Part shown: one piece after another, positions 18,268 through 45,298 of the stretch
Position numbering within the stretch: position 1 is the stretch's first letter
Layout: every line of letters starts with the position of its first letter
DNA from: Escherichia coli
Lineage (GTDB): Bacteria > Pseudomonadota > Gammaproteobacteria > Enterobacterales > Enterobacteriaceae
NCBI RefSeq assembly: GCF_003334765.1
Contig: NZ_QOWT01000013.1
Reading direction: 5' to 3' (one strand)
Length of the DNA: 64,000 nt
Position numbers and translations under genes: made by a program
The notes under the pieces: model-generated
Seen by the model: only the letters and a program-made list of their open reading frames with translations
What the model was told of the DNA's origin: nothing
Databases searched by the model: none

Positions 18268-18355
18268 GGAAGTGTGGCCGAGCGGTTGAAGGCACCGGTC
18301 TTGAAAACCGGCGACCCGAAAGGGTTCCAGAGTTCGAATCTCTGCGCTTCCGCCA
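18268..18355 (+). tRNA. serT: tRNA-Ser (anticodon UGA)
   Basis: 88-nt sequence GGAAGTGTGGCCGAGCGGTTGAAGG...TTCGAATCTCTGCGCTTCCGCCA with long variable arm, encoded CCA end and TGA anticodon in CTTGAAAA loop. Confidence 0.9.
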
Positions 18356-18397: not shown

Positions 18398-18561
18398 TGC
18401 CTGTCGAAATTCTCAGGGCGTTATATTTGCTTAATGACCTGATAATCCGCTGTTAAACCTGTTCCAGATCAAATGCGTAAAGATGGGTAAAACTTCTGGG
18501 TGCCCTTACGCATTATCATTATGCTGCTTAATTAATTACATCTGTCATAGAGAGTGACTCA

Positions 18562-19221
18562 ATGGATCGTATTGTTAGTTCTTCACATGACCGTACATCA
18601 CTGCTTAGCACCCATAAGGTGCTGCGTAATACCTATTTTCTGCTGAGCCTGACGCTGGCCTTTTCGGCGATTACCGCAACTGCCAGTACGGTGCTGATGC
18701 TGCCATCTCCGGGTCTGATTCTGACGCTGGTGGGTATGTATGGTTTGATGTTCCTGACCTATAAAACGGCGAATAAGCCGACCGGGATTATCTCCGCATT
18801 CGCCTTTACCGGTTTTCTGGGTTATATCCTCGGACCTATTCTGAACACCTATCTGTCTGCCGGAATGGGTGACGTAATCGCTATGGCACTGGGCGGAACG
18901 GCGTTAGTGTTCTTCTGCTGCTCTGCATATGTGCTGACCACCCGCAAAGATATGTCGTTCCTCGGCGGTATGCTGATGGCGGGTATTGTGGTGGTGCTGA
19001 TTGGTATGGTTGCGAATATCTTCCTGCAGCTGCCTGCTCTGCATCTGGCGATCAGCGCGGTCTTCATTCTGATCTCCTCTGGCGCTATCTTGTTTGAAAC
19101 CAGCAACATCATTCATGGCGGTGAGACGAACTATATTCGTGCCACGGTTAGCCTGTATGTTTCGCTGTACAACATCTTCGTCAGCCTGCTGAGCATTCTG
19201 GGCTTCGCTAGCCGCGATTAA
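18562..19221 (+). CDS. yccA: YccA, BAX-inhibitor-1 family inner-membrane protein (FtsH modulator)
   Basis: ORF track 18562..19221, 219 aa, seven hydrophobic segments; recognised as YccA. Confidence 0.9.
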
Positions 19222-19243
19222 TCTCACCCGCTAACACTTTCAT

Positions 19244-19275
19244 AGCCTCGCTTTATGCGGGGCTTTGTTTTTTGT
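19244..19275 (+). terminator. Rho-independent terminator after yccA
   Basis: AGCCTCGC-TTTAT-GCGGGGCT hairpin followed by TTGTTTTTTGTT. Confidence 0.55.
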
Positions 19276-19311
19276 TACACTGCCGCCAGTCTGATTAAGG
19301 TAGTAATAATT

Positions 19312-19641
19312 ATGCTGATCTTCGAAGGTAAAGAGATAGAAACGGATACCGAAGGCTATCTCAAAGAAAGCAGCCAGTGGAGTGAGCCGCTGGCTGTGGT
19401 GATTGCAGAGAACGAAGGGATTTCGCTGTCACCGGAACACTGGGAAGTGGTGCGTTTTGTGCGTGATTTCTATCTGGAATTCAATACTTCTCCGGCGATT
19501 CGTATGCTGGTAAAAGCGATGGCGAATAAATTTGGCGAAGAAAAAGGTAACAGCCGCTATTTATACCGACTGTTTCCGAAAGGTCCGGCTAAGCAAGCCA
19601 CCAAAATTGCTGGCCTGCCAAAACCGGTAAAATGTATTTAA
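19312..19641 (+). CDS. tusE: TusE (YccK) sulfur-relay protein for tRNA 2-thiouridine synthesis
   Basis: ORF-track frame 19255..19641 trimmed to Met-20 (109 aa) with TAAGG upstream; DsrC-like, C-terminal PKPVKCI. Confidence 0.85.
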
Positions 19642-19916
19642 CGGATACGAAAATCGGTTAATTCCCCCGAGGGATGATGCGGCTCGCTGAGCACCCGTTC
19701 TACACGCGCAGAACGCGGGCCGCCACTCTTTAACCACTGCATTAATTTTTCCACCTGCCCTTCTTCACCGCAAGCAACCACTTCCACGCTGCCATCGTCA
19801 AGATTTTTGGCGTACCCGGTTAAACCCAGTCTTTTCGCTTCGTACTGTGTGGTGTAGCGAAATCCTACGCCCTGAACTCGCCCGTAAACCCAGGCAATTA
19901 TGCAGACTTTCGACAT
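19638..19916 (-). CDS. acyP: AcyP (YccX) acylphosphatase
   Basis: ORF-track frame 19638..20129 trimmed to Met-72 (92 aa); acylphosphatase signature VQGVGFR. Confidence 0.85.
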
Positions 19917-20010
19917 TGCTGCTCTCCTTATCCTTAATGGACGCGTTGCAAATCCATGGAAAACTCCGGACAATGACGCCCATTTCTTTGCATCGACAGA
20001 AAAGTAAATT

Positions 20011-21201
20011 ATGAGTGTACGTTTAGTGTTAGCCAAAGGGCGCGAAAAATCATTACTTCGTCGCCATCCGTGGGTCTTTTCCGGGGCCGTTGCCCGCATG
20101 GAAGGTAAAGCCAGCCTCGGTGAAACCATCGATATTGTTGATCATCAGGGAAAATGGTTAGCACGCGGCGCTTATTCGCCAGCTTCGCAAATCCGGGCGC
20201 GCGTCTGGACGTTTGACCCGTCTGAGTCTATCGACATTGCTTTTTTTTCCCGCCGTTTGCAACAAGCACAAAAATGGCGTGACTGGCTGGCGCAAAAAGA
20301 TGGCCTCGACAGCTATCGTTTAATCGCCGGAGAATCTGATGGCCTGCCGGGTATTACTATCGATCGTTTCGGTAATTTTCTGGTGCTGCAACTGCTGAGT
20401 GCTGGGGCAGAATATCAGCGCGCGGCATTAATTAGTGCCCTGCAAACGCTGTACCCGGAATGTTCGATTTACGATCGCAGCGACGTCGCGGTACGTAAAA
20501 AAGAAGGAATGGAGCTGACCCAGGGCCCCGTCACCGGCGAGTTGCCACCTGCCCTGCTGCCGATTGAAGAACACGGAATGAAACTGCTGGTGGATATTCA
20601 GCACGGACACAAAACGGGCTACTACCTGGACCAGCGTGATAGCCGCCTGGCTACCCGCCGCTACGTTGAAAATAAACGTGTGCTGAACTGTTTCTCCTAT
20701 ACCGGTGGTTTCGCCGTATCGGCACTGATGGGCGGTTGCAGCCAGGTTGTCAGCGTTGATACCTCCCAGGAAGCGCTGGATATTGCACGGCAGAACGTTG
20801 AGCTGAACAAACTGGATCTGAGCAAGGCTGAGTTTGTCCGTGATGATGTCTTTAAATTGCTGCGTACTTATCGCGATCGCGGTGAAAAATTTGACGTTAT
20901 CGTGATGGACCCGCCGAAGTTTGTTGAGAATAAAAGCCAGTTGATGGGCGCGTGTCGTGGTTATAAAGACATCAACATGCTGGCGATTCAGCTGCTGAAT
21001 GAAGGCGGTATTCTCCTGACTTTCTCCTGTTCCGGTCTGATGACCAGCGATTTATTTCAGAAAATCATCGCGGATGCCGCAATTGATGCCGGTCGTGATG
21101 TACAATTTATAGAGCAGTTCCGTCAGGCAGCCGATCATCCGGTGATCGCTACCTATCCGGAAGGGCTATATCTGAAAGGGTTTGCCTGTCGCGTCATGTA
21201 A
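20011..21201 (+). CDS. rlmI: RlmI (YccW) 23S rRNA m5C1962 methyltransferase
   Basis: ORF track 20011..21201, 396 aa; SAM-dependent methyltransferase fold with PUA-like N-terminus. Confidence 0.9.
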
Positions 21202-21576
<375 letters not shown>

Positions 21577-34097: not shown

Positions 34098-34265
34098 TCA
34101 GGCCATTACTACCCTGTCCGCCATGGCTTCTCGCCAGCCTCCCAGCCATTGTGACCTTTGATTCAGCGTCTGATAGGGACACATTTCTTTTGAGCGTCCG
34201 GCGATGCCGGCCTGATAACCACGTTGATGTGCCCGTTCCAGGCGATCTCGTTTTTGTCTCTTCAT
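34098..34265 (-). CDS. rmf: Rmf ribosome modulation factor
   Basis: Not called in ORF track (a longer out-of-frame ORF 34084..34281 covers it); hand translation from ATG at 34265 gives MKRQKRD..., 55 aa, stop TGA at 34100-34098. Confidence 0.9.
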   Translation of the reverse strand: MKRQKRDRLERAHQRGYQAGIAGRSKEMCPYQTLNQRSQWLGGWREAMADRVVMA

Positions 34266-34462
34266 GCCTCGTTTCCCTCATACTGGTTTCTGGTGGAAAA
34301 GAAAACAGTGATTACTAAATGTGCAATCACAGTTAAGCAATACCGCGAATCATAACTGCCGTCAATGCGCAAAATTCACGCCACTGTCATATTTGTGAGC
34401 TACACGGGCATGTCGGTTGTACAAAAAATGTGAAGAGGAACAAATTTTTCCGCACGTTAGAG

Positions 34463-34500
34463 ACAAAAAAACCGCCTCAGGCAACATACCGGAGACGGTT
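34463..34500 (-). terminator. Putative Rho-independent terminator after pqiC
   Basis: On minus strand AACCGTCTC-(13-nt loop)-GAGGCGGTT followed by TTTTTTTT. Confidence 0.5.
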
Positions 34501-34520
34501 ATATTTACAAATCTTTATAA

Positions 34521-35084
34521 TTAAGGTAGACGCTTTATCTCTTGTGCAATAGAAGCGGCTTCCTGACTCCAGACACCGGCCAGCACTTTAACCATCTCAT
34601 CGTAACCATCCTGAGTTTGCACTCCTTCCAGACGGAACGGACGTTTGATCAGTTGTCCCTGGTGGTTCAACAGCCACTCACCACTGACAATGACCTTGCC
34701 ATCATAGCGACCGTTAAACTCCGTTACGGTAACATTGAGCGTGTCCTGGGCGCTTCCCAGAGGCTGGGAGACAACCACCCAGCCGGGCAGTTGCGTACTC
34801 AGGTTGGCAACCAGGGTGTTGCGCAACTGTTGATCCAACGGGCTGGCCCACAAGTTGTTGTTGGCAATCACATACTTCACATCACTGGTTTGATAAACCA
34901 CACCATTCCCCGCCAGATAGTCAGGAACAGTGACCTGCTCTACCCATAACAGACGATTGCCCTGGCTGGCGGTACTTTGTGTACCGCTCTGCACCACAGG
35001 TAACTGGTAATAGTTTTTATTAATTTCGCCGGAGCTGCATCCGGCCAGCCACAGTGCTGCAATCGTCACTAGCCACTTTTTCAT
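34521..35084 (-). CDS. pqiC: PqiC (YmbA) lipoprotein of the Pqi MCE system
   Basis: ORF track 34521..35084, 187 aa, lipobox LAGCSS; overlaps pqiB stop by 4 nt. Confidence 0.85.
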   Translation of the reverse strand: MKKWLVTIAALWLAGCSSGEINKNYYQLPVVQSGTQSTASQGNRLLWVEQVTVPDYLAGNGVVYQTSDVKYVIANNNLWASPLDQQLRNTLVANLSTQLPGWVVVSQPLGSAQDTLNVTVTEFNGRYDGKVIVSGEWLLNHQGQLIKRPFRLEGVQTQDGYDEMVKVLAGVWSQEAASIAQEIKRLP

Positions 35085-36721
35085 TGTTTCGCCCTCTTCG
35101 GCTCTGGATCTTTTTTGTCCTTCGCTTCAAATACCAGCGCGTTACTCTTCTCATTGAGCGTTTTCAGCACCGGTTGCAGTTCTCGCAACACCTGATCAAG
35201 GCGCTGCATATCCGCCACCATCTTGTTGTAGGCTGCGGAGCCAGGCTGGAAGCCCTGCATGCTGCGATTCAATTCACGCAACGTTGACTGCATATCCGTC
35301 GGCAACTGCTGCATCGACTGGCTAGCGAGGATCTTGTTCATGCTATCCAGCGTCGTTTGCAGGTTTTTCATTGTGCGCTGACTTTCAGAAAGCGTACTGG
35401 TTGCCTGTTCAATCATCGGATTCAATGGCAGTTTGTTGATCTTATCCAACGCTTCCATCAGTCGTTGCTGGATTTGCGCCAGGCCGCCGCTAACGGTCGG
35501 GATAATCTGATAACCATTAAATTCACGAATACCGGTTATTGCAGGCGTATTTGGATAGAAATCGAGATCAACATACAGTGCACCAGTGACCAGGTTTCCG
35601 GTTTTCAGCGATCCGCGTAAACCACGTTTCAACAATTCGCCAAGGTGCTCAACAACATCCGCATTTTCGCCAAGCTGCATTTTCAGCCGCTCTGGCTCGA
35701 TACGAATCAGTACCGGAATACGGTAATCATCGTTAAATGTCTGACGCATATTCGGCGCAAAGAATGGCACTTTGCTTACGGTACCCAGGCGAATACCCCG
35801 GAACTCTACCGGAGCTCCCGGTTGCAGACCGCGTACCGAATCTTTAAAGAACATCAGATAATCAATGTGATCGGTGTACAACGAATCCTGAATGCTCTTC
35901 TGATCATCATACAAAACGAAAGCTGTTTTCGGTGCCACTGGCTGCCCTAAATCCAGACCTTCCGGCACATCAAAGCTGACACCGCCACTCAGCAGCGTTG
36001 TCAATGAGCCCATCTCCACACGCATCCCTGCTGACGTCAGATCAACCGCAATGCCACTATCTTTCCAGAAGCGAACATTGTTGGTCACCAGTCGGTCATA
36101 AGGTGCATTGATGAACAGTTGATAGCTGATATTGCGTTTTTGTGTATCGAAGGTGCTGGTTTCAACCGAACCTACCCGATAGCCACGGAACAGCACCGGA
36201 TCTCCTGGCGAGAGCTGCCCGGCTTTTTTGCTATCGAGAATCACACGGATACCTTTCGCATCAGGCGGGGCCAACGGTGGCGAGTCCAGCAAATCGTATT
36301 TATCCATTTTGCTGCCTTTCGCGCCTGGCTGCAGTTCGATATAAACTCCAGACAGCAGCGTTCCCAGGCCGCTAATCCCTTCGCGACCAATCTGCGGTTT
36401 CACCACCCAAAAGACGGTGTCTTTATGCAGCAATTTTTCCATACCGGAATTCAGCCGCGCTTTGATTTCAACGTGCGTCAAATCATCAGCCAGTGTGGCG
36501 CTTTCAACCACGCCGACGTCAACGCTACGGCTTTTAATGGTGGTTTTGCCACCTTCAATTCCTTCCGCATTCGCGGTGATCAGGGTCACTTCCGGTCCCT
36601 GATGGCTGTAATGATAAAAAAGAACCCAGGCCCCAATGAGCGCCGTGACGATAGGAAATATCCACACGGGAGACCAGTTCTTCACTTTCTGGATTTTGGC
36701 TTCCCCATTATTAGATTCCAT
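35081..36721 (-). CDS. pqiB: PqiB MCE-domain intermembrane transport protein
   Basis: ORF-track frame 35081..36781 trimmed to Met-21 (546 aa); N-terminal TM helix then repeated MCE domains. Confidence 0.85.
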   Translation of the reverse strand: MESNNGEAKIQKVKNWSPVWIFPIVTALIGAWVLFYHYSHQGPEVTLITANAEGIEGGKTTIKSRSVDVGVVESATLADDLTHVEIKARLNSGMEKLLHKDTVFWVVKPQIGREGISGLGTLLSGVYIELQPGAKGSKMDKYDLLDSPPLAPPDAKGIRVILDSKKAGQLSPGDPVLFRGYRVGSVETSTFDTQKRNISYQLFINAPYDRLVTNNVRFWKDSGIAVDLTSAGMRVEMGSLTTLLSGGVSFDVPEGLDLGQPVAPKTAFVLYDDQKSIQDSLYTDHIDYLMFFKDSVRGLQPGAPVEFRGIRLGTVSKVPFFAPNMRQTFNDDYRIPVLIRIEPERLKMQLGENADVVEHLGELLKRGLRGSLKTGNLVTGALYVDLDFYPNTPAITGIREFNGYQIIPTVSGGLAQIQQRLMEALDKINKLPLNPMIEQATSTLSESQRTMKNLQTTLDSMNKILASQSMQQLPTDMQSTLRELNRSMQGFQPGSAAYNKMVADMQRLDQVLRELQPVLKTLNEKSNALVFEAKDKKDPEPKRAKQ

Positions 36722-36725
36722 ACTG

Positions 36726-37979
36726 TCAGGACTCCTCATGCTCTGATTCAGGTTGACGATCCCACGACAAACGCGGGTCAAACGTCATAGCAGAAAACAT
36801 TGTCATTATGACGACTAAAGCAAACATTAATGCACCCATTGCCGGATAAATACTCATTAAACCTCCCATACGCACCAGCGCCGAGAGCACCGCGATAACG
36901 AAAACGTCAATCATCGACCAGCGGCCTACAAACTCAACAACTTCATAAATCAAATGCATTCTTTCACTGTCGCGCTTGCCATGCCCTTTGGCATCCCAAC
37001 ACAGCCACGCGATGGCGATCATCTTTAACGTTGGCACCATAATACTGGCCAGAAAGATCACCGCAGCGACGGGATAAGAGCCTTCGCTCCATAACAGAAT
37101 GACCCCAGCGAGAATCGTCGACGGCATCTTCGAGCCTAATAAATCCGTCACCATGATGGGCAAAATATTAGCCGGAAGATACAGCATGATGGACGTTACA
37201 AGCAGCGCGAGTGTCCACTGCAGGCTGTTTCTACGCCGAACGTACCCTTTGGTACTACAACGCGGGCACACGGGTTCATCAGCAGGAAGGATTGCCGTAC
37301 AACAGGAGCACGAACGCAGCCCCTGACGTATCCCCGTGACGCCTGGTTTTAGCGGCTGGCGCAGTTCTGGCATCGGGGCGATGTCGTCCCATAACCAGCG
37401 ACGATCAACGCACTGAAAAGCGCGCAGTTGCAGGACACAAAATAAACACCAGGGGAGAAAGCTGCTGCCTACCCCAATGCTGCCGTAAGCCATCAGTTTA
37501 ACGAAACTGACCAGCACACCCGCGAGGAAAATCTCCGCCATTCCCCAGGTTTTGAGTTGAAAAAGCACCCGTGCCAGTTGCTCTTTTAAACGGACCGGTA
37601 ATTCCGCGCGATTCACCAGTAACAGAATGGTTATCAGACAAAACGCGGGAACCAGTTGCACAAACAACAGGAAAAAGGTGCCGAGGCTGGCGTAGTCCTC
37701 AGAAAAAAGCACGCCGGGAATTTCCAGTAATGTAATTTCACTGGTAACTCCTGCAACGTTCATATTCACAAAAGGAAACAAGTTGGACAGCAACAGCATG
37801 AACAGTGCAGCCAACGCATAGGCGGTGGGACGCTGCCGAGGGGCATCCCACGCCACGGTTAACGTTGTGCCACACCGGGGACATGCCGCTTTCTGACCAT
37901 GCTCAAGGCGCGGTAACGCCACCAGCATGTCACACTGCGAGCACAGGATGTGCTTCGCGGCATGATGATGTTCGCACAT
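36726..37979 (-). CDS. pqiA: PqiA paraquat-inducible inner-membrane protein
   Basis: ORF track 36726..37979, 417 aa; duplicated CxxC zinc-ribbon plus TM modules; AAGGAG RBS. Confidence 0.85.
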   Translation of the reverse strand: MCEHHHAAKHILCSQCDMLVALPRLEHGQKAACPRCGTTLTVAWDAPRQRPTAYALAALFMLLLSNLFPFVNMNVAGVTSEITLLEIPGVLFSEDYASLGTFFLLFVQLVPAFCLITILLLVNRAELPVRLKEQLARVLFQLKTWGMAEIFLAGVLVSFVKLMAYGSIGVGSSFLPWCLFCVLQLRAFQCVDRRWLWDDIAPMPELRQPLKPGVTGIRQGLRSCSCCTAILPADEPVCPRCSTKGYVRRRNSLQWTLALLVTSIMLYLPANILPIMVTDLLGSKMPSTILAGVILLWSEGSYPVAAVIFLASIMVPTLKMIAIAWLCWDAKGHGKRDSERMHLIYEVVEFVGRWSMIDVFVIAVLSALVRMGGLMSIYPAMGALMFALVVIMTMFSAMTFDPRLSWDRQPESEHEES

Positions 37980-38108
37980 TGGTACTCCTTAATGATGCGC
38001 TATTTTACAGATGACTAACAAAGTGTTGGTTTTCATGCCTGATAAACCCAGTTCATCAGGCAATTTTACCGTTGTCAGCTGTCTCTGTTTAAATCGACTA
38101 TTTTGCGA

Positions 38109-40016
38109 TCAGCCACCATTTTTTAACGCTTCAAGATACTCCCAGCGTTCAAAGGCTTGCTCCAGCTCCTGCTCTGCAGCAGCCATATCAGCAAGCACTT
38201 TTTGCGTCTGCTCATGCGGCTGACTGAAGAAGGAAGCATCCGCCACTTGCGTCTGTAGGGCTTCCAGCTTCGCCTCCAGATCTTCGAGCAATTGCGGTAG
38301 CTGCTCCAGTTCGCGCTGCAATTTATAGCTTAGTTTGCTACTGCTGCGTTTTACAGTTTCTGCTTTTGCCGCGGCGGCTTCTTCGGTTTTTTTCACCGCA
38401 GGCTGTTTGAGCGCCACATACTGCTCTTGCTGACCACGGGCATCATGATAACCGCCGACATAACGACCAATTTTACCGCCGCCTTCGAAGATCCAACATT
38501 CTGTAACGGTGTTATCGACAAACTGACGATCGTGGCTAACCAGCAATACCGTGCCCTGATAGCTGTCGATCAGTTCTTCCAGCAGTTCCAGCGTTTCGAC
38601 ATCAAGATCGTTGGTCGGTTCGTCAAGAATCAATAAGTTGCTTGGTTTGAGGAACAAACGCGCCAGCAGCAAGCGGTTCCGCTCACCGCCAGAAAGCGCA
38701 CGTACCGGCGTCATCGCCCGTTTCGGATGGAACAGAAAGTCCTGCAAATAGCCCAATACGTGGCGTGGCTTGCCGTTAACCATCACCTCTTGCTTACCTT
38801 CGGCAAGGTTATCCATCACCGTTTTATCGGGATCCAGTTCCGCGCGGTGCTGATCGAAATAAGCCACTTCCAGTTTGGTGCCAACGTGAATACGCCCGCT
38901 GTCCGCTTGAAGCTGACCGAGCATCAGTTTTAGCAGCGTGGTTTTGCCGCACCCATTCGGACCAATCAGGGCAATTTTGTCGCCACGTAGAACCTGGGCA
39001 GAAAAATCTTTCACCAGTTGCTTACCGTTAACCTGGTAGCAAACGTCTTCCATTTCGAAAACGATTTTACCGGAGCGGCTGGCCTCTTCCACCTGCATCT
39101 TTGCGGTACCCATCACTTCGCGACGTTCACCACGTTCGCGACGCATCGCTTTCAGGGCGCGTACGCGGCCTTCATTACGGGTACGGCGTGCTTTGATCCC
39201 CTGGCGGATCCACACCTCTTCCTGCGCCAGTTTGCGATCGAACTCGGCATTTTGTAATTCTTCCACGCGCAGGGCTTCTTCTTTTTCCAGCAGGTACTGG
39301 TCGTAATTCCCTGGATAGGTCACCAGCTTGCCGCGATCGAGATCAACAATGCGCGTCGCCATATTGCGGATAAACGAACGGTCGTGGGAGATGAAAATAA
39401 TCGTCCCGTTGAAAGTTTTCAAAAACCCTTCCAGCCAGTCGATGGTTTCAATATCCAGGTGGTTTGTCGGTTCATCAAGCAACAGCACGCGCGGATTACT
39501 CACCAGCGCGCGTCCTAATGCCGCTTTACGCAACCAGCCGCCGGAAAGCGACGACAGCGCAACGTTAGGATCTAACCCCAGTTGCGCCAGCACTTCGTTG
39601 ATGCGGTTTTCCAGCTGCCACAGGTTGTGGTGATCCAGCTGTTCCTGAACCTTCGCCAGTTCGTTGAGATTTTTCTCGCTCGGGTCGTTCATCACCAGGC
39701 GCGAAATATCGTGATAGCGTTTCAGATATTCCGCTTGTTCTTCAATGCCTTCGGCAACGAAATCATAAACGCTACCCTCAACGTTACGCGGCGGATCCTG
39801 TTGCAGACGCGCTACAATCAAATCTTGCTCGTAAATAATGCGACCGTCATCCAGCCCTTGTTCACGGTTGAGGATTTTCATTAACGTCGATTTGCCTGCG
39901 CCGTTGCGGCCCACCAGACAAACACGTTCGTTATCTTCGATATGCAGTTCTGCGTTATCGAGAAGCGGCGCGTCGCTGAACGACAGCCATGCGCCATGCA
40001 TACTGATTAATGACAT
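38109..40016 (-). CDS. uup: Uup ABC-F family ATPase
   Basis: ORF track 38109..40016, 635 aa; two ABC cassettes (GRNGAGKST and GPNGCGKTT Walker A, two LSGG signatures) and C-terminal coiled coil. Confidence 0.9.
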   Translation of the reverse strand: MSLISMHGAWLSFSDAPLLDNAELHIEDNERVCLVGRNGAGKSTLMKILNREQGLDDGRIIYEQDLIVARLQQDPPRNVEGSVYDFVAEGIEEQAEYLKRYHDISRLVMNDPSEKNLNELAKVQEQLDHHNLWQLENRINEVLAQLGLDPNVALSSLSGGWLRKAALGRALVSNPRVLLLDEPTNHLDIETIDWLEGFLKTFNGTIIFISHDRSFIRNMATRIVDLDRGKLVTYPGNYDQYLLEKEEALRVEELQNAEFDRKLAQEEVWIRQGIKARRTRNEGRVRALKAMRRERGERREVMGTAKMQVEEASRSGKIVFEMEDVCYQVNGKQLVKDFSAQVLRGDKIALIGPNGCGKTTLLKLMLGQLQADSGRIHVGTKLEVAYFDQHRAELDPDKTVMDNLAEGKQEVMVNGKPRHVLGYLQDFLFHPKRAMTPVRALSGGERNRLLLARLFLKPSNLLILDEPTNDLDVETLELLEELIDSYQGTVLLVSHDRQFVDNTVTECWIFEGGGKIGRYVGGYHDARGQQEQYVALKQPAVKKTEEAAAAKAETVKRSSSKLSYKLQRELEQLPQLLEDLEAKLEALQTQVADASFFSQPHEQTQKVLADMAAAEQELEQAFERWEYLEALKNGG

Positions 40017-40027
40017 TACTATTCCTT

Positions 40028-42136
40028 TCAGGCTGCGGTAATCAGCCAGCAGTTGTGGATCTGGCGGTTACGGGCGAAATCCTGGGAGAGCGTTTTTTGC
40101 GTAATTTCTTGTGCTTTCAGTCCCAGTTTTGCCAGGCCGTCGAGATCCATACGGAAGCCACGTTTGTTGTTCGAGAACATGATCGTCCCACCTGCACGCA
40201 GCAGACGTTTCAAATCTTTCATCAGCGCCAGATGATCGCGCTGAACATCAAACGCATCTTCCATTCGTTTTGAGTTAGAGAAGGTTGGCGGATCGATAAA
40301 GATCAGATCGAACTGTTCATTTGCCTCACGCAGCCACGCCAGGCAATCGGCCTGAATCAGGCGATGCGCACGCCCGGTCAGGCCATTCAGACGCAGGTTG
40401 CGTTCTGCCCATTCCAGATAAGTACGCGACATATCCACGGTGGTGGTGCTGCGTGCACCGCCTAATCCCGCATGCACGGTGGCGCTGCCGGTATAAGAGA
40501 ACAGGTTGAGGAAATCTTTGCCTTTGCTCATCTGACCGAGCATACGACGGGCGATGCGGTGATCGAGGAACAGACCAGTATCGAGATAATCCGTCAGGTT
40601 CACCCACAAGTGAGCGTTATATTCGGTAACTTCAAGAAACTCGCCCTTCTCGCCCAGTTTCTGGTATTGGTTTTTGCCCTTCTGGCGTTCACGGGTTTTC
40701 AGCACCAGTTTGTTTGGCGCAATCCCCAGTACCGAAATGGTTGCAGCGATAATATCGAACAGACGCTGACGCGCTTTGTGAGCATCAATAGTTTTTGGCG
40801 GCGCATACTCCTGCACCACCACCCAGTCGGCATAACGGTCAACGGCAACGTTATATTCTGGCAGATCGGCGTCATACAGGCGGTAACATTCAATCCCTTC
40901 CTGGCGAGCCCACTTCTCGAATTTTTTGAGGTTCTTACGCAGGCGGTTGGTGTAGTCTTCCGCTACCATCGCCGGTTTGCTGTCTGGAGTGCTTTCGGCA
41001 ACGTGGTAATTTTTCTGTACGCAGTCCAGCGGGCCGTTTTTCGCCTTGTACTGTTTGTCTGCACGCAGCTGCAAGCAGCTTAGCAGATCCGGCGAGGCAC
41101 TAAACAAAGAGAGATTCCAGCCACCAAACTGGTTTTTCATGATCCGACCCAGCAGGCTATGCAGCGCAATCAGCGCCGGTTCGCTGTCCAGACGTTCCCC
41201 GTATGGCGGGTTGCTCAACACTGTGCCGTACGGCCCTTTCGGCAGCGGATTGGTCAGTTGCGCGACATCTTTCACCTCAAAGGTGATCAGTTCACCAATC
41301 CCCGCAAGACGGGCGTTAGTGCGTGCACGTTGAATCACCCGTGCGTCGCTGTCCGAACCGTAAAAATGAGAGCTATACTCAGCCAGGCCTTTACGGGCGC
41401 GAGTTTGCGCTTCCGCTTTCACTTCCTGCCAGATAGCTTCATCATGCTGCGCCCAGCCGCTAAAGCCCCAACGCCCACGGTGCAAGCCTGGTGCGCGATC
41501 GGTCGCCAGCATCGCTGCTTCAATCAGCAACGTACCGGAACCACACATCGGATCGAGCAGCGGTGTTCCTGGCTGCCAGCCGGATCGCATCACAATAGCG
41601 GCTGCCAGGGTTTCTTTGATCGGCGCAATACCAGCACGATCGCGATAGCCACGCAGATGTAAACCATCACCACTCAGATCAAGAGCGATACTGGCGGTTT
41701 CTTTATGCAGCCAGACGTTAACGCGGATATCCGGCGCATCGCGATCAACATTTGGACGCGGCAGATTTTTCCGCGTGAAAGCATCGACGATCGCGTCTTT
41801 CACTTTCATCGCGCCGTACTGACTGTTGCGGATGGTGTCATTCAAACCACTGAAGTGGACAGCGAAGGTCGCGCCAGGATTAAACATCTCTGTCCAGTTG
41901 ATCGCCTGAACACCGAGATAGAGGTCTAAATCGCTGTAAACCTTACACTCGCCCAGCGGCAACATAATACGCGAGGCCAGGCGGCTCCACATCAGGCTCT
42001 GGTAAACAAGCCGTGTGTCGCCCTTGAAATGGACCCCACCCTGAACCACCTGGCATTCAACGGCCCCCAGGTTTTCCAGTTCAGTTTTTAACAGCTCTTC
42101 CAGCCCACGGGCCGTACTGGCAAACAGAGAATTCAT
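40028..42136 (-). CDS. rlmL: RlmKL (RlmL/YcbY) bifunctional 23S rRNA m2G2445/m7G2069 methyltransferase
   Basis: ORF track 40028..42136, 702 aa; recognised as RlmKL. Confidence 0.9.
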
Positions 42137-42379
42137 ATCGTCACTTTTACTCTAAGAGCCTACCGCAGTAGGCGTAATTGTTGCAGTCAGTCTGGACATG
42201 GACAGCGCGGAGAAACCGGAGCGTACACAAGTACGTGAGGATTTCGAGCATAACCCAGGGCCAAACTGACAAATAAAATAGCCTAATGGGACAGGCGCTA
42301 AGAAAATTGTTGCGCATTATAGCTAATAAGCGCGTCATGTCATAAAGTTGAGGGCTTATTTTCATTTGAGGACCGCACC

Positions 42380-43489
42380 GTGGCGACATTAATCCGGCTT
42401 TTTATTCATCCTGTTAAATCGATGCGCGGCATTGGTCTTACACATGCTCTGGCAGATGTCAGTGGTCTGGCCTTCGATCGCATCTTTATGATCACGGAAC
42501 CTGACGGTACGTTTATTACCGCTCGCCAGTTTCCCCAGATGGTACGGTTTACTCCTTCACCTGTGCATGATGGCTTGCATCTCACCGCACCAGATGGCAG
42601 TAGCGCATATGTTCGTTTTGCTGATTTCGCCACACAAGACGCACCAACCGAAGTTTGGGGCACACATTTTACCGCGCGAATTGCGCCAGACGCGATCAAC
42701 AAATGGCTAAGTGGATTTTTCTCCCGCGAAGTGCAATTACGCTGGGTGGGGCCACAAATGACCCGGCGCGTGAAACGCCACAACACTGTACCTCTGTCAT
42801 TTGCTGATGGCTATCCTTACCTTCTTGCTAACGAAGCCTCGTTACGTGATCTCCAACAACGTTGTCCGGCCAGTGTAAAAATGGAGCAATTCCGCCCCAA
42901 TCTGGTGGTTTCCGGCGCGTCAGCCTGGGAAGAAGATCGCTGGAAAGTGATTCGCATTGGTGATGTGGTGTTTGATGTGGTTAAACCTTGTAGCCGCTGT
43001 ATTTTCACCACCGTCAGCCCAGAAAAAGGGCAAAAACATCCGGCAGGCGAACCATTAAAAACATTGCAATCTTTCCGCACTGCCCAGGATAACGGCGATG
43101 TCGATTTTGGTCAGAATTTAATTGCCCGTAATAGCGGCGTGATTCGCGTTGGCGATGAGGTGGAAATTCTGGCAACGGCTCCGGCAAAAATTTACGGCGC
43201 AGCTGCCGCTGATGATACCGCCAACATCACGCAACAACCGGACGCAAATGTAGATATTGACTGGCAGGGACAGGCATTTCGTGGAAATAACCAACAGGTG
43301 TTGCTGGAGCAATTAGAAAATCAGGGAATTCGTATCCCTTATTCTTGCCGCGCGGGCATTTGTGGAAGTTGCCGTGTTCAGCTTTTAGAAGGCGAAGTCA
43401 CGCCGCTGAAAAAATCAGCAATGGGCGATGATGGCACCATTCTTTGCTGTAGCTGTGTACCGAAGACTGCACTTAAGTTGGCGCGTTAG
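42380..43489 (+). CDS. ycbX: YcbX MOSC-domain protein with C-terminal 2Fe-2S ferredoxin domain
   Basis: ORF track 42380..43489, 369 aa, GTG start with GAGGA 7 nt upstream; C-terminal CRAGICGSC...CC cysteine cluster. Confidence 0.85.
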
Positions 43490-44201: not shown

Positions 44202-45212
44202 TTAGATATGGGTAACGATTTCTTTAATCAGCGGCGGACCTTTAAAAATAAAACCAGAATAAATTTGCACCAGTGAGGCACCCGCAGCAATCTTTTCACG
44301 CGCAGCGATAACCGAGTCGATGCCGCCAACACCGATGATCGGTAAGCGACCGTTTAATTCCAGTGACAAGCGGCGAATAATTTCGGTGCTTTTTAACTGA
44401 AGCGGACGACCACTTAAGCCACCGGTTTGATCGCAATTTTTCATTCCCTGAACAAGAGAACGATCGAGTGTGGTATTGGTTGCAATAACGCCATCAATAT
44501 TATGGCGAACTAAACTATCGGCAACCTGGATCAATTCTTCTTCAGAAAGATCCGGCGCGATCTTCACTGCGATCGGCACATATTTATGGTGCATCGCTTG
44601 CAAATCATTTTGCTTATTTTTAATCGCGGTTAAGAGATCATCCAGCGCTTCACCATATTGCAGCGTGCGTAATCCTGGGGTATTCGGCGATGAAATATTG
44701 ATGGCGATATATCCCGCATAGGCATAGATTTTTTCCATACAAATCAGATAGTCATCTTTGCCCTGCTCCACTGGCGTATCTTTATTTTTGCCGATGTTAA
44801 TACCCAGGACGCCGTCATAATGGGCCTTTTTTACGTTCTCTACGAGGTTATCAACGCCAAGATTATTAAAGCCCATACGGTTGATCAAACCTTCGGCATC
44901 TACCAGACGAAAGAGACGCGGCTTGTCATTACCTGGCTGTGGACGTGGCGTGACGGTACCGATCTCGATCGATCCAAATCCCATCGCGCCTAACGCGTCA
45001 ATGCACTCCCCGTCTTTATCAAGACCGGCTGCCAGACCAAGCGGATTTTTAAACGTCAGGCCCATGCAGTTAACAGGTTTCGCAGGCACTTTCTGCCGCA
45101 CCAGTGCTTCAAACGGCGTTCCTGTAATACGGCGTAATTGCTGAAAAGTAAACTCATGAGCGCGCTCTGGATCGAGCTGGAAAAGGGCTTTACGAACGAA
45201 GGGGTAGTACAT
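44202..45212 (-). CDS. pyrD: PyrD dihydroorotate dehydrogenase (quinone)
   Basis: ORF-track frame 44202..45239 trimmed to Met-10 (336 aa) with AGGAG upstream; [21 protein letters not shown] recognised. Confidence 0.95.
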
Positions 45213-45298
45213 GAACTCTCCTGGATTCCCGGTGTGCAAACCGGGGGCGTATTATGTGCGAGTTCGGACCAAAAGGGAATTGACCTGCGGCAAAAAAA

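Follow-up and report, generated by a model that had tools for sequence, protein, structure and literature searches.

The convergent genes tusE and yccX of Escherichia coli share the last four nucleotides of their coding sequences. We read this arrangement, with a probability of about 0.9, as an ordinary and evolutionarily stable tail-to-tail overlap of two unrelated housekeeping genes, one that leaves their mRNAs with complementary 3' tails and needs no role as a regulator to account for it. All positions refer to the window, the whole stretch of 64,000 nt from contig NZ_QOWT01000013.1 that was analysed, which is E. coli chromosome. The two genes are functionally unrelated: the product of tusE is a tRNA 2-thiouridine sulfur-relay protein, that of yccX an acylphosphatase. 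Published Term-seq shows that the tusE mRNA ends about 86 nt into yccX, immediately behind a G+C-rich hairpin whose U-tract is poor; for the yccX mRNA the most likely end lies about 95-100 nt inside tusE, at a predicted hairpin and U-tract (19578-19537). If that second end is right, the two mRNAs would be perfectly complementary over about 190 nt (19537-19727), a potential RNA duplex. The overlap probably persists because both C-termini are constrained and the tetramer drifts synonymously among TTAA, TTAG, CTAA and CTAG, and it need not have been selected as a regulator.

Overlapping stop codons of tusE and yccX

On the plus strand tusE closes with AAA TGT ATT TAA at 19630-19641, encoding K, C, I and a stop, with TAA at 19639-19641; along the minus strand yccX closes with CGT ATC CGT (R I R) followed by TAA at 19640..19638, and the two bases 19639-19640 are common to both stop codons. 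The functional cysteine of TusE is its penultimate residue. An earlier note, made from the letters of this DNA alone, had put the two stops at exactly these positions, and the sequence, the list of open reading frames (ends at 19641 on the plus and 19638 on the minus strand) and RefSeq, whose coordinates for both genes (Table 1) give the identical 4-nt overlap, all agree with it. The note had also located the overlap within TTTAA, which holds with the refinement that the coding overlap itself is TTAA and the extra T belongs to the last Ile codon of tusE. The gene that it called acyP is yccX in RefSeq.

One might ask whether the overlap is unreal, an annotation artefact in which one of the stops was miscalled. 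We found no point in favour of this reading and regard it as effectively refuted: NCBIfam equivalog models cover both proteins end to end, TusE over 1-109 of 109 residues (243.7 bits) and YccX over 1-92 of 92 (170.6 bits); the solved E. coli acylphosphatase (PDB 2gv1) has 92 residues, the same as YccX, and covers 1-92; the alignment with PDB relatives of the DsrC/TusE family reaches the final TusE residue, 109; and the C-termini of both proteins are conserved across 80 species. Every one of the 5426 complete E. coli genomes in the collection contains the stretch 19200-20050, many with 100% identity; its annotated gene order is yccA, tusE, yccX, rlmI.

Table 1. Features at and around the tusE/yccX overlap (window coordinates)
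Feature	Position	Strand	Basis and remarks
yccA canonical intrinsic terminator	19244..19273	+	Consensus scan; primary 3' end of PMC7815308 at 19269
tusE CDS	19312..19641	+	109 aa, sulfurtransferase TusE; ORF list, NCBIfam NF008562 (1-109/109), RefSeq
U-rich tract UUUUUCUUC after candidate yccX hairpin	19537..19545	-	Antisense of tusE Glu-Glu-Lys codons
Candidate yccX terminator hairpin	19546..19578	-	Predicted by folding, MFE -13.3 kcal/mol; antisense to tusE codons 79-89
Shared tetramer TTAA (4-nt CDS overlap)	19638..19641	both	Sequence reading
yccX (acyP) CDS	19638..19916	-	92 aa, acylphosphatase; ORF list, NCBIfam NF011000 (1-92/92), PDB 2gv1, RefSeq
tusE mRNA 3' untranslated tail	19642..19728	+	Antisense to last ~29 yccX codons; PMC7815308
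G+C-rich hairpin before mapped tusE end	19679..19723	+	MFE -19.5 kcal/mol for 19677-19723; followed by weak U-tract CACUCUUUAA
yccS/sxy overlap, 38 nt	28213-28250	both	yccS + (ends 28250); sxy - (ends 28213)
ycbX/zapC overlap, 4 nt, TTAG	43486-43489	both	ycbX + (42380-43489, stop TAG); zapC - (stop TAA, 43488->43486)

A conserved instance of a common class

Overlapping gene ends of this kind are well described. Lillo and Krakauer (2007; PMC2174442) reported that prokaryotic overlaps have a modal length of 4 bp, that convergent overlaps jump markedly at 4, that the tetramers permitted in 4-nt convergent overlaps are CTAA, TTAA, CTAG and TTAG, and that convergent overlaps number about 58 in E. 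coli. tusE/yccX is an ordinary arrangement, with no claim to rarity, and a member of this known 4-nt convergent class: the NCBIfam models, RefSeq and the PDB relatives identify both members as genuine protein-coding genes, which lie on opposite strands, and the overlap of their 3' ends is exactly 4 nt long and consists of a permitted tetramer, TTAA. Like the other members it packs the stops of opposite strands into a tetramer and forces the terminators into the partner, the same authors having pointed out that a Rho-independent terminator of such a pair has to fall within the partner's coding sequence. The pair differs from the class in nothing essential; it is one instance, and one that is conserved across Enterobacteriaceae.

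Neighbouring genes provide further examples, in that 3 of the 8 convergent pairs annotated in the first 50 kb of the window overlap, namely tusE/yccX, ycbX/zapC and yccS/sxy. The latter two resemble tusE/yccX as convergent coding overlaps, and zapC-ycbX and sxy-yccS adjoin yccX-tusE on the excludon list of PMC12288877; they differ from it in involving other genes and, for yccS/sxy, in an overlap of 38 nt rather than 4.

For the comparison across species we scanned species-representative genomes and retained the 80 closest loci, all of them from Enterobacteriaceae; comparisons on 81 species include the window. What is new here is how faithfully the geometry is kept: the exact E. coli stop overlap is found in 78 of the 80 species, and all four permitted tetramers are in use. 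TTAA accounts for 49 of the 79 overlapping cases (the window included), TTAG and CTAA for 11 each and CTAG for 8, and synonymous changes at wobble positions switch between them, with ATT or ATC (Ile) as the final sense codon of tusE and mostly TAT or TAC (Tyr) as that of yccX. In Escherichia (the window and loci L002 and L003) yccX has no terminal Tyr codon and ends IR* where most other Enterobacteriaceae have IRY*. This loss is a 3-nt deletion (window 19641-19643, corresponding to about 2830-2836 in L004-L081) that regenerated the TTAA overlap. Of the two exceptions, Entomohabitans teleogrylli (L054:2825-2837) carries a 4-nt insertion that leaves a gap of 0, with abutting stops and TGA as the yccX stop, and Cedecea colo (L057:2825-2840) carries a 7-nt tandem duplication of ATTTAGT that opens a gap of 3 nt. 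These data make the overlap an old and stable one, and yet a dispensable one, given that these two species have split the stops while keeping both TusE and YccX intact.

Overlapping transcripts

With zero intergenic DNA there can be no terminator between tusE and yccX, and each mRNA must therefore enter the other gene; indeed, an mRNA that bears its own stop codon already covers that of its partner. The earlier note had drawn both conclusions, that no room is left for a terminator and that each transcript runs antisense into the other gene. The geometry establishes the former, and the latter is supported on the tusE side by Term-seq and for the pair as a whole by the ExcludonFinder survey, in which the transcripts overlap in at least 50% of the transcriptomes.

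Term-seq, which the note had proposed as a check, has been published for E. coli (Adams et al. 2021; PMC7815308), and Supplementary file 1 of that study records, for the tusE strand, a dominant 3' end with the class 'antisense yccX'. It occurs in LB at OD 0.4 (MG1655 position 1030253) and in M63 (1030252) and is absent from the sheet for LB OD 2.0. The 61-nt flank given for it matches window 19677-19737 letter for letter, and the end maps to 19727 (LB 0.4) or 19728 (M63), 86-87 nt past the tusE stop and inside yccX. The legend gives the flanks as '40 bp upstream and 10 bp downstream', whereas the strings are 61 nt long, and we took 10 nt as downstream. This choice is supported by yccA, because the same reading puts its 3' end at 19269, within the U-tract of its canonical terminator. 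Supplementary file 1 has no 3'-end entry naming tusE, that is, none for the yccX end; the supplements of PMC12207403 have no entry for tusE or yccX, and a full-text literature search for yccK together with yccX found nothing.

The transcript overlap is already known. In ExcludonFinder (PMC12288877), which drew on 58 MG1655 transcriptomes, yccX-tusE is one of 165 convergent pairs with overlapping transcript boundaries in at least half of them, and Georg et al. (2019; PMC7154689) mentioned yccX/tusE as one of the tail-to-tail pairs that the top RyhB MAPS list contains, proposing that overlapping mRNAs or UTRs could let one partner co-purify indirectly with the other. The pair is catalogued as a convergent excludon by the criterion of transcript overlap, and the literature bears this out with both the Term-seq end and the ExcludonFinder listing.

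Hairpins at the two transcript ends

Both hairpins were compared with 2000 synonymous recodings of the coding sequence, drawn with codon usage from the window, and both were examined for covariation with RNAalifold on the 81 species. The mapped tusE end lies 4 nt past the hairpin at 19679-19723, in a tail, CACUCUUUAA, that has 4 U among 10 nt, and the consensus terminator scan does not call this hairpin. It is not unusual among synonymous recodings of the yccX codons, 18% of which are at least as stable; RNAalifold finds no compensatory change and a consensus energy of -0.45 kcal/mol, and the energies of the homologous segments vary widely across species around a median of -13.9 kcal/mol. We read the hairpin as a side effect of the conserved GGPRSAR motif, whose codons are rich in G+C, because so many recodings are equally stable and no compensatory change is seen. 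The tusE end itself could be the product of weak intrinsic termination, or a trimmed end derived from Rho or from collision.

For yccX, the best candidate terminator, at which its mRNA most likely ends, is the predicted hairpin and U-tract at 19578-19537. Some 5.8% of the tusE recodings yield as stable a hairpin, and 2.3% do so jointly with the U-tract, values that are marginal and post hoc. The U-tract has 5-7 U among 9 nt in 80 of the 81 species and 4 in the remaining one, a conservation that is expected because the EEK codons of tusE are themselves conserved. The 10-nt loop region of the hairpin falls outside the rules of the consensus scan. Here, too, RNAalifold on the 81 species finds no compensatory change (consensus energy -3.8 kcal/mol), and homologous energies vary widely, with a median of -9.0 kcal/mol. 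At 19567-19569, E. coli and E. albertii encode an Arg residue of TusE by the rare codon CGA, where most other genera have CGC or CGT; on the antisense strand, CGA turns a mismatch in the stem of the candidate terminator into a G-U pair.

The two ends invite comparison with the bidirectional terminators described by SEnd-seq (Ju et al. 2019) and in bioRxiv 10.1101/2022.10.23.513370, which likewise serve convergent units with overlapping 3' ends, and the hairpin near the mapped tusE end, which lacks a canonical U-tract, is a further likeness. Those terminators are intergenic, however, with both ends flanking one shared hairpin region, whereas tusE and yccX have no intergenic DNA between them and their ends, one mapped and one predicted, lie about 190 nt apart in different coding sequences. 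With the tusE end at 19727, the predicted yccX end at about 19540 and separate hairpins about 150 nt apart, the pair does not conform to a bidirectional terminator in the sense of Ju et al. (2019).

Competing explanations

It is possible, though we lean against it, that the 3' ends are not the work of hairpin terminators embedded in the partner gene. Rho could instead act on the antisense tail, which is untranslated, or polymerases could collide head-on, and exonucleases would then trim the RNA as far as a stable hairpin. Such a route would suit a tusE end that has nothing better than CACUCUUUAA after its hairpin, draws no call from the consensus scan and sits behind a structure unremarkable among recodings. 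There is also precedent, since a non-intrinsic, Rho-independent, collision-driven form of termination has been described for convergent genes of E. coli (Ju et al. 2019; bioRxiv 10.1101/2022.10.23.513370), and PMC7815308 remarks that Rho-terminated RNAs get trimmed to processed ends. The supplements of the latter study, on the other hand, have no Rho-region entry naming tusE or yccX, and a 3' end 4 nt past a hairpin of -19.5 kcal/mol also fits weak intrinsic termination.

Another alternative is that the pair is a selected, true excludon, in which convergent transcription and the duplex of about 190 nt make tusE and yccX antagonise one another, through polymerase interference, RNase III or both, and that this explains the conservation. 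One might expect as much from transcripts that overlap in at least half of the 58 transcriptomes, from the mention of the pair among the tail-to-tail pairs of the top RyhB MAPS list, from a geometry kept in nearly every species compared, and from a candidate yccX terminator somewhat more stable than its recodings (5.8%, or 2.3% with the U-tract). Yet the functions of the two genes are unrelated, neither hairpin shows covariation, the p-value from the recodings is a marginal one obtained post hoc, and a literature search for reciprocal-expression or RNase III (rnc-mutant) data on the pair found none. The conservation is more simply explained by constrained C-termini and a zero spacer, and small insertions separated the stops in E. 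teleogrylli and C. colo with both proteins left intact. We therefore consider antagonism of this kind unlikely. The pair resembles the convergent excludons of MG1655 (PMC12288877) in being itself listed among them, on the basis of overlapping RNA-seq transcript boundaries, whereas the hallmark of classical excludons is mutually exclusive expression with RNase III processing, and tusE/yccX qualifies by transcript overlap alone.

That the embedded candidate terminator and the obligatory mRNA duplex have some regulatory consequence seems to us rather improbable as well. The strongest form of this idea is very improbable, namely a selected antisense switch in which a candidate yccX terminator, written into synonymous sites of tusE (such as CGA 19567-19569) and kept Enterobacteriaceae-wide, reciprocally couples tRNA-thiolation capacity to acylphosphatase expression through the duplex of about 190 nt. 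tusE/yccX is a clean, conserved example of a well-described form of genome compaction, with little meaning beyond bookkeeping. It could have modest value as a test case for two questions: whether selection shapes a terminator that lies within the coding sequence of a partner gene, and whether an obligatory 3'-3' mRNA overlap brings unrelated housekeeping genes any regulatory cost or use.

Other features of the region

A consensus promoter and terminator scan of 18400-21400 found, near the locus, only the yccA terminator and nothing in either antisense tail, and its match counts were no higher than those in shuffled sequence. Only some 45 nt separate the yccA terminator 3' end (19269) from the start codon of tusE, which means that the promoter of tusE must overlap the 3' region of yccA, or else tusE needs read-through. 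A mechanical open reading frame from the ATG at 19255 (128 aa) runs through the yccA terminator and is unsupported by the TusE family model. On the minus strand, a sigma-70-like match (TTGGCT, 17-nt spacer, CATAAT) at 20008-20036, in the first codons of rlmI and facing yccX, might be a yccX promoter; it is a consensus match only, in a region where the number of such matches equals the shuffled expectation.

At the gathering threshold, Rfam has no RNA family at the tusE/yccX locus. Its sole matches in the window are the PyrD leader at 45207-45280 (-), upstream of pyrD, and a tRNA at 18268-18355 (+), annotated as tRNA-Ser in RefSeq. By the ompA end, the window falls about 12 nt short of strain 600468 (NZ_CP025849.1), with the offset first appearing between 28250 and 30967; about 2 nt of it are recovered further on (34098-43486), and these differences are small strain indels.
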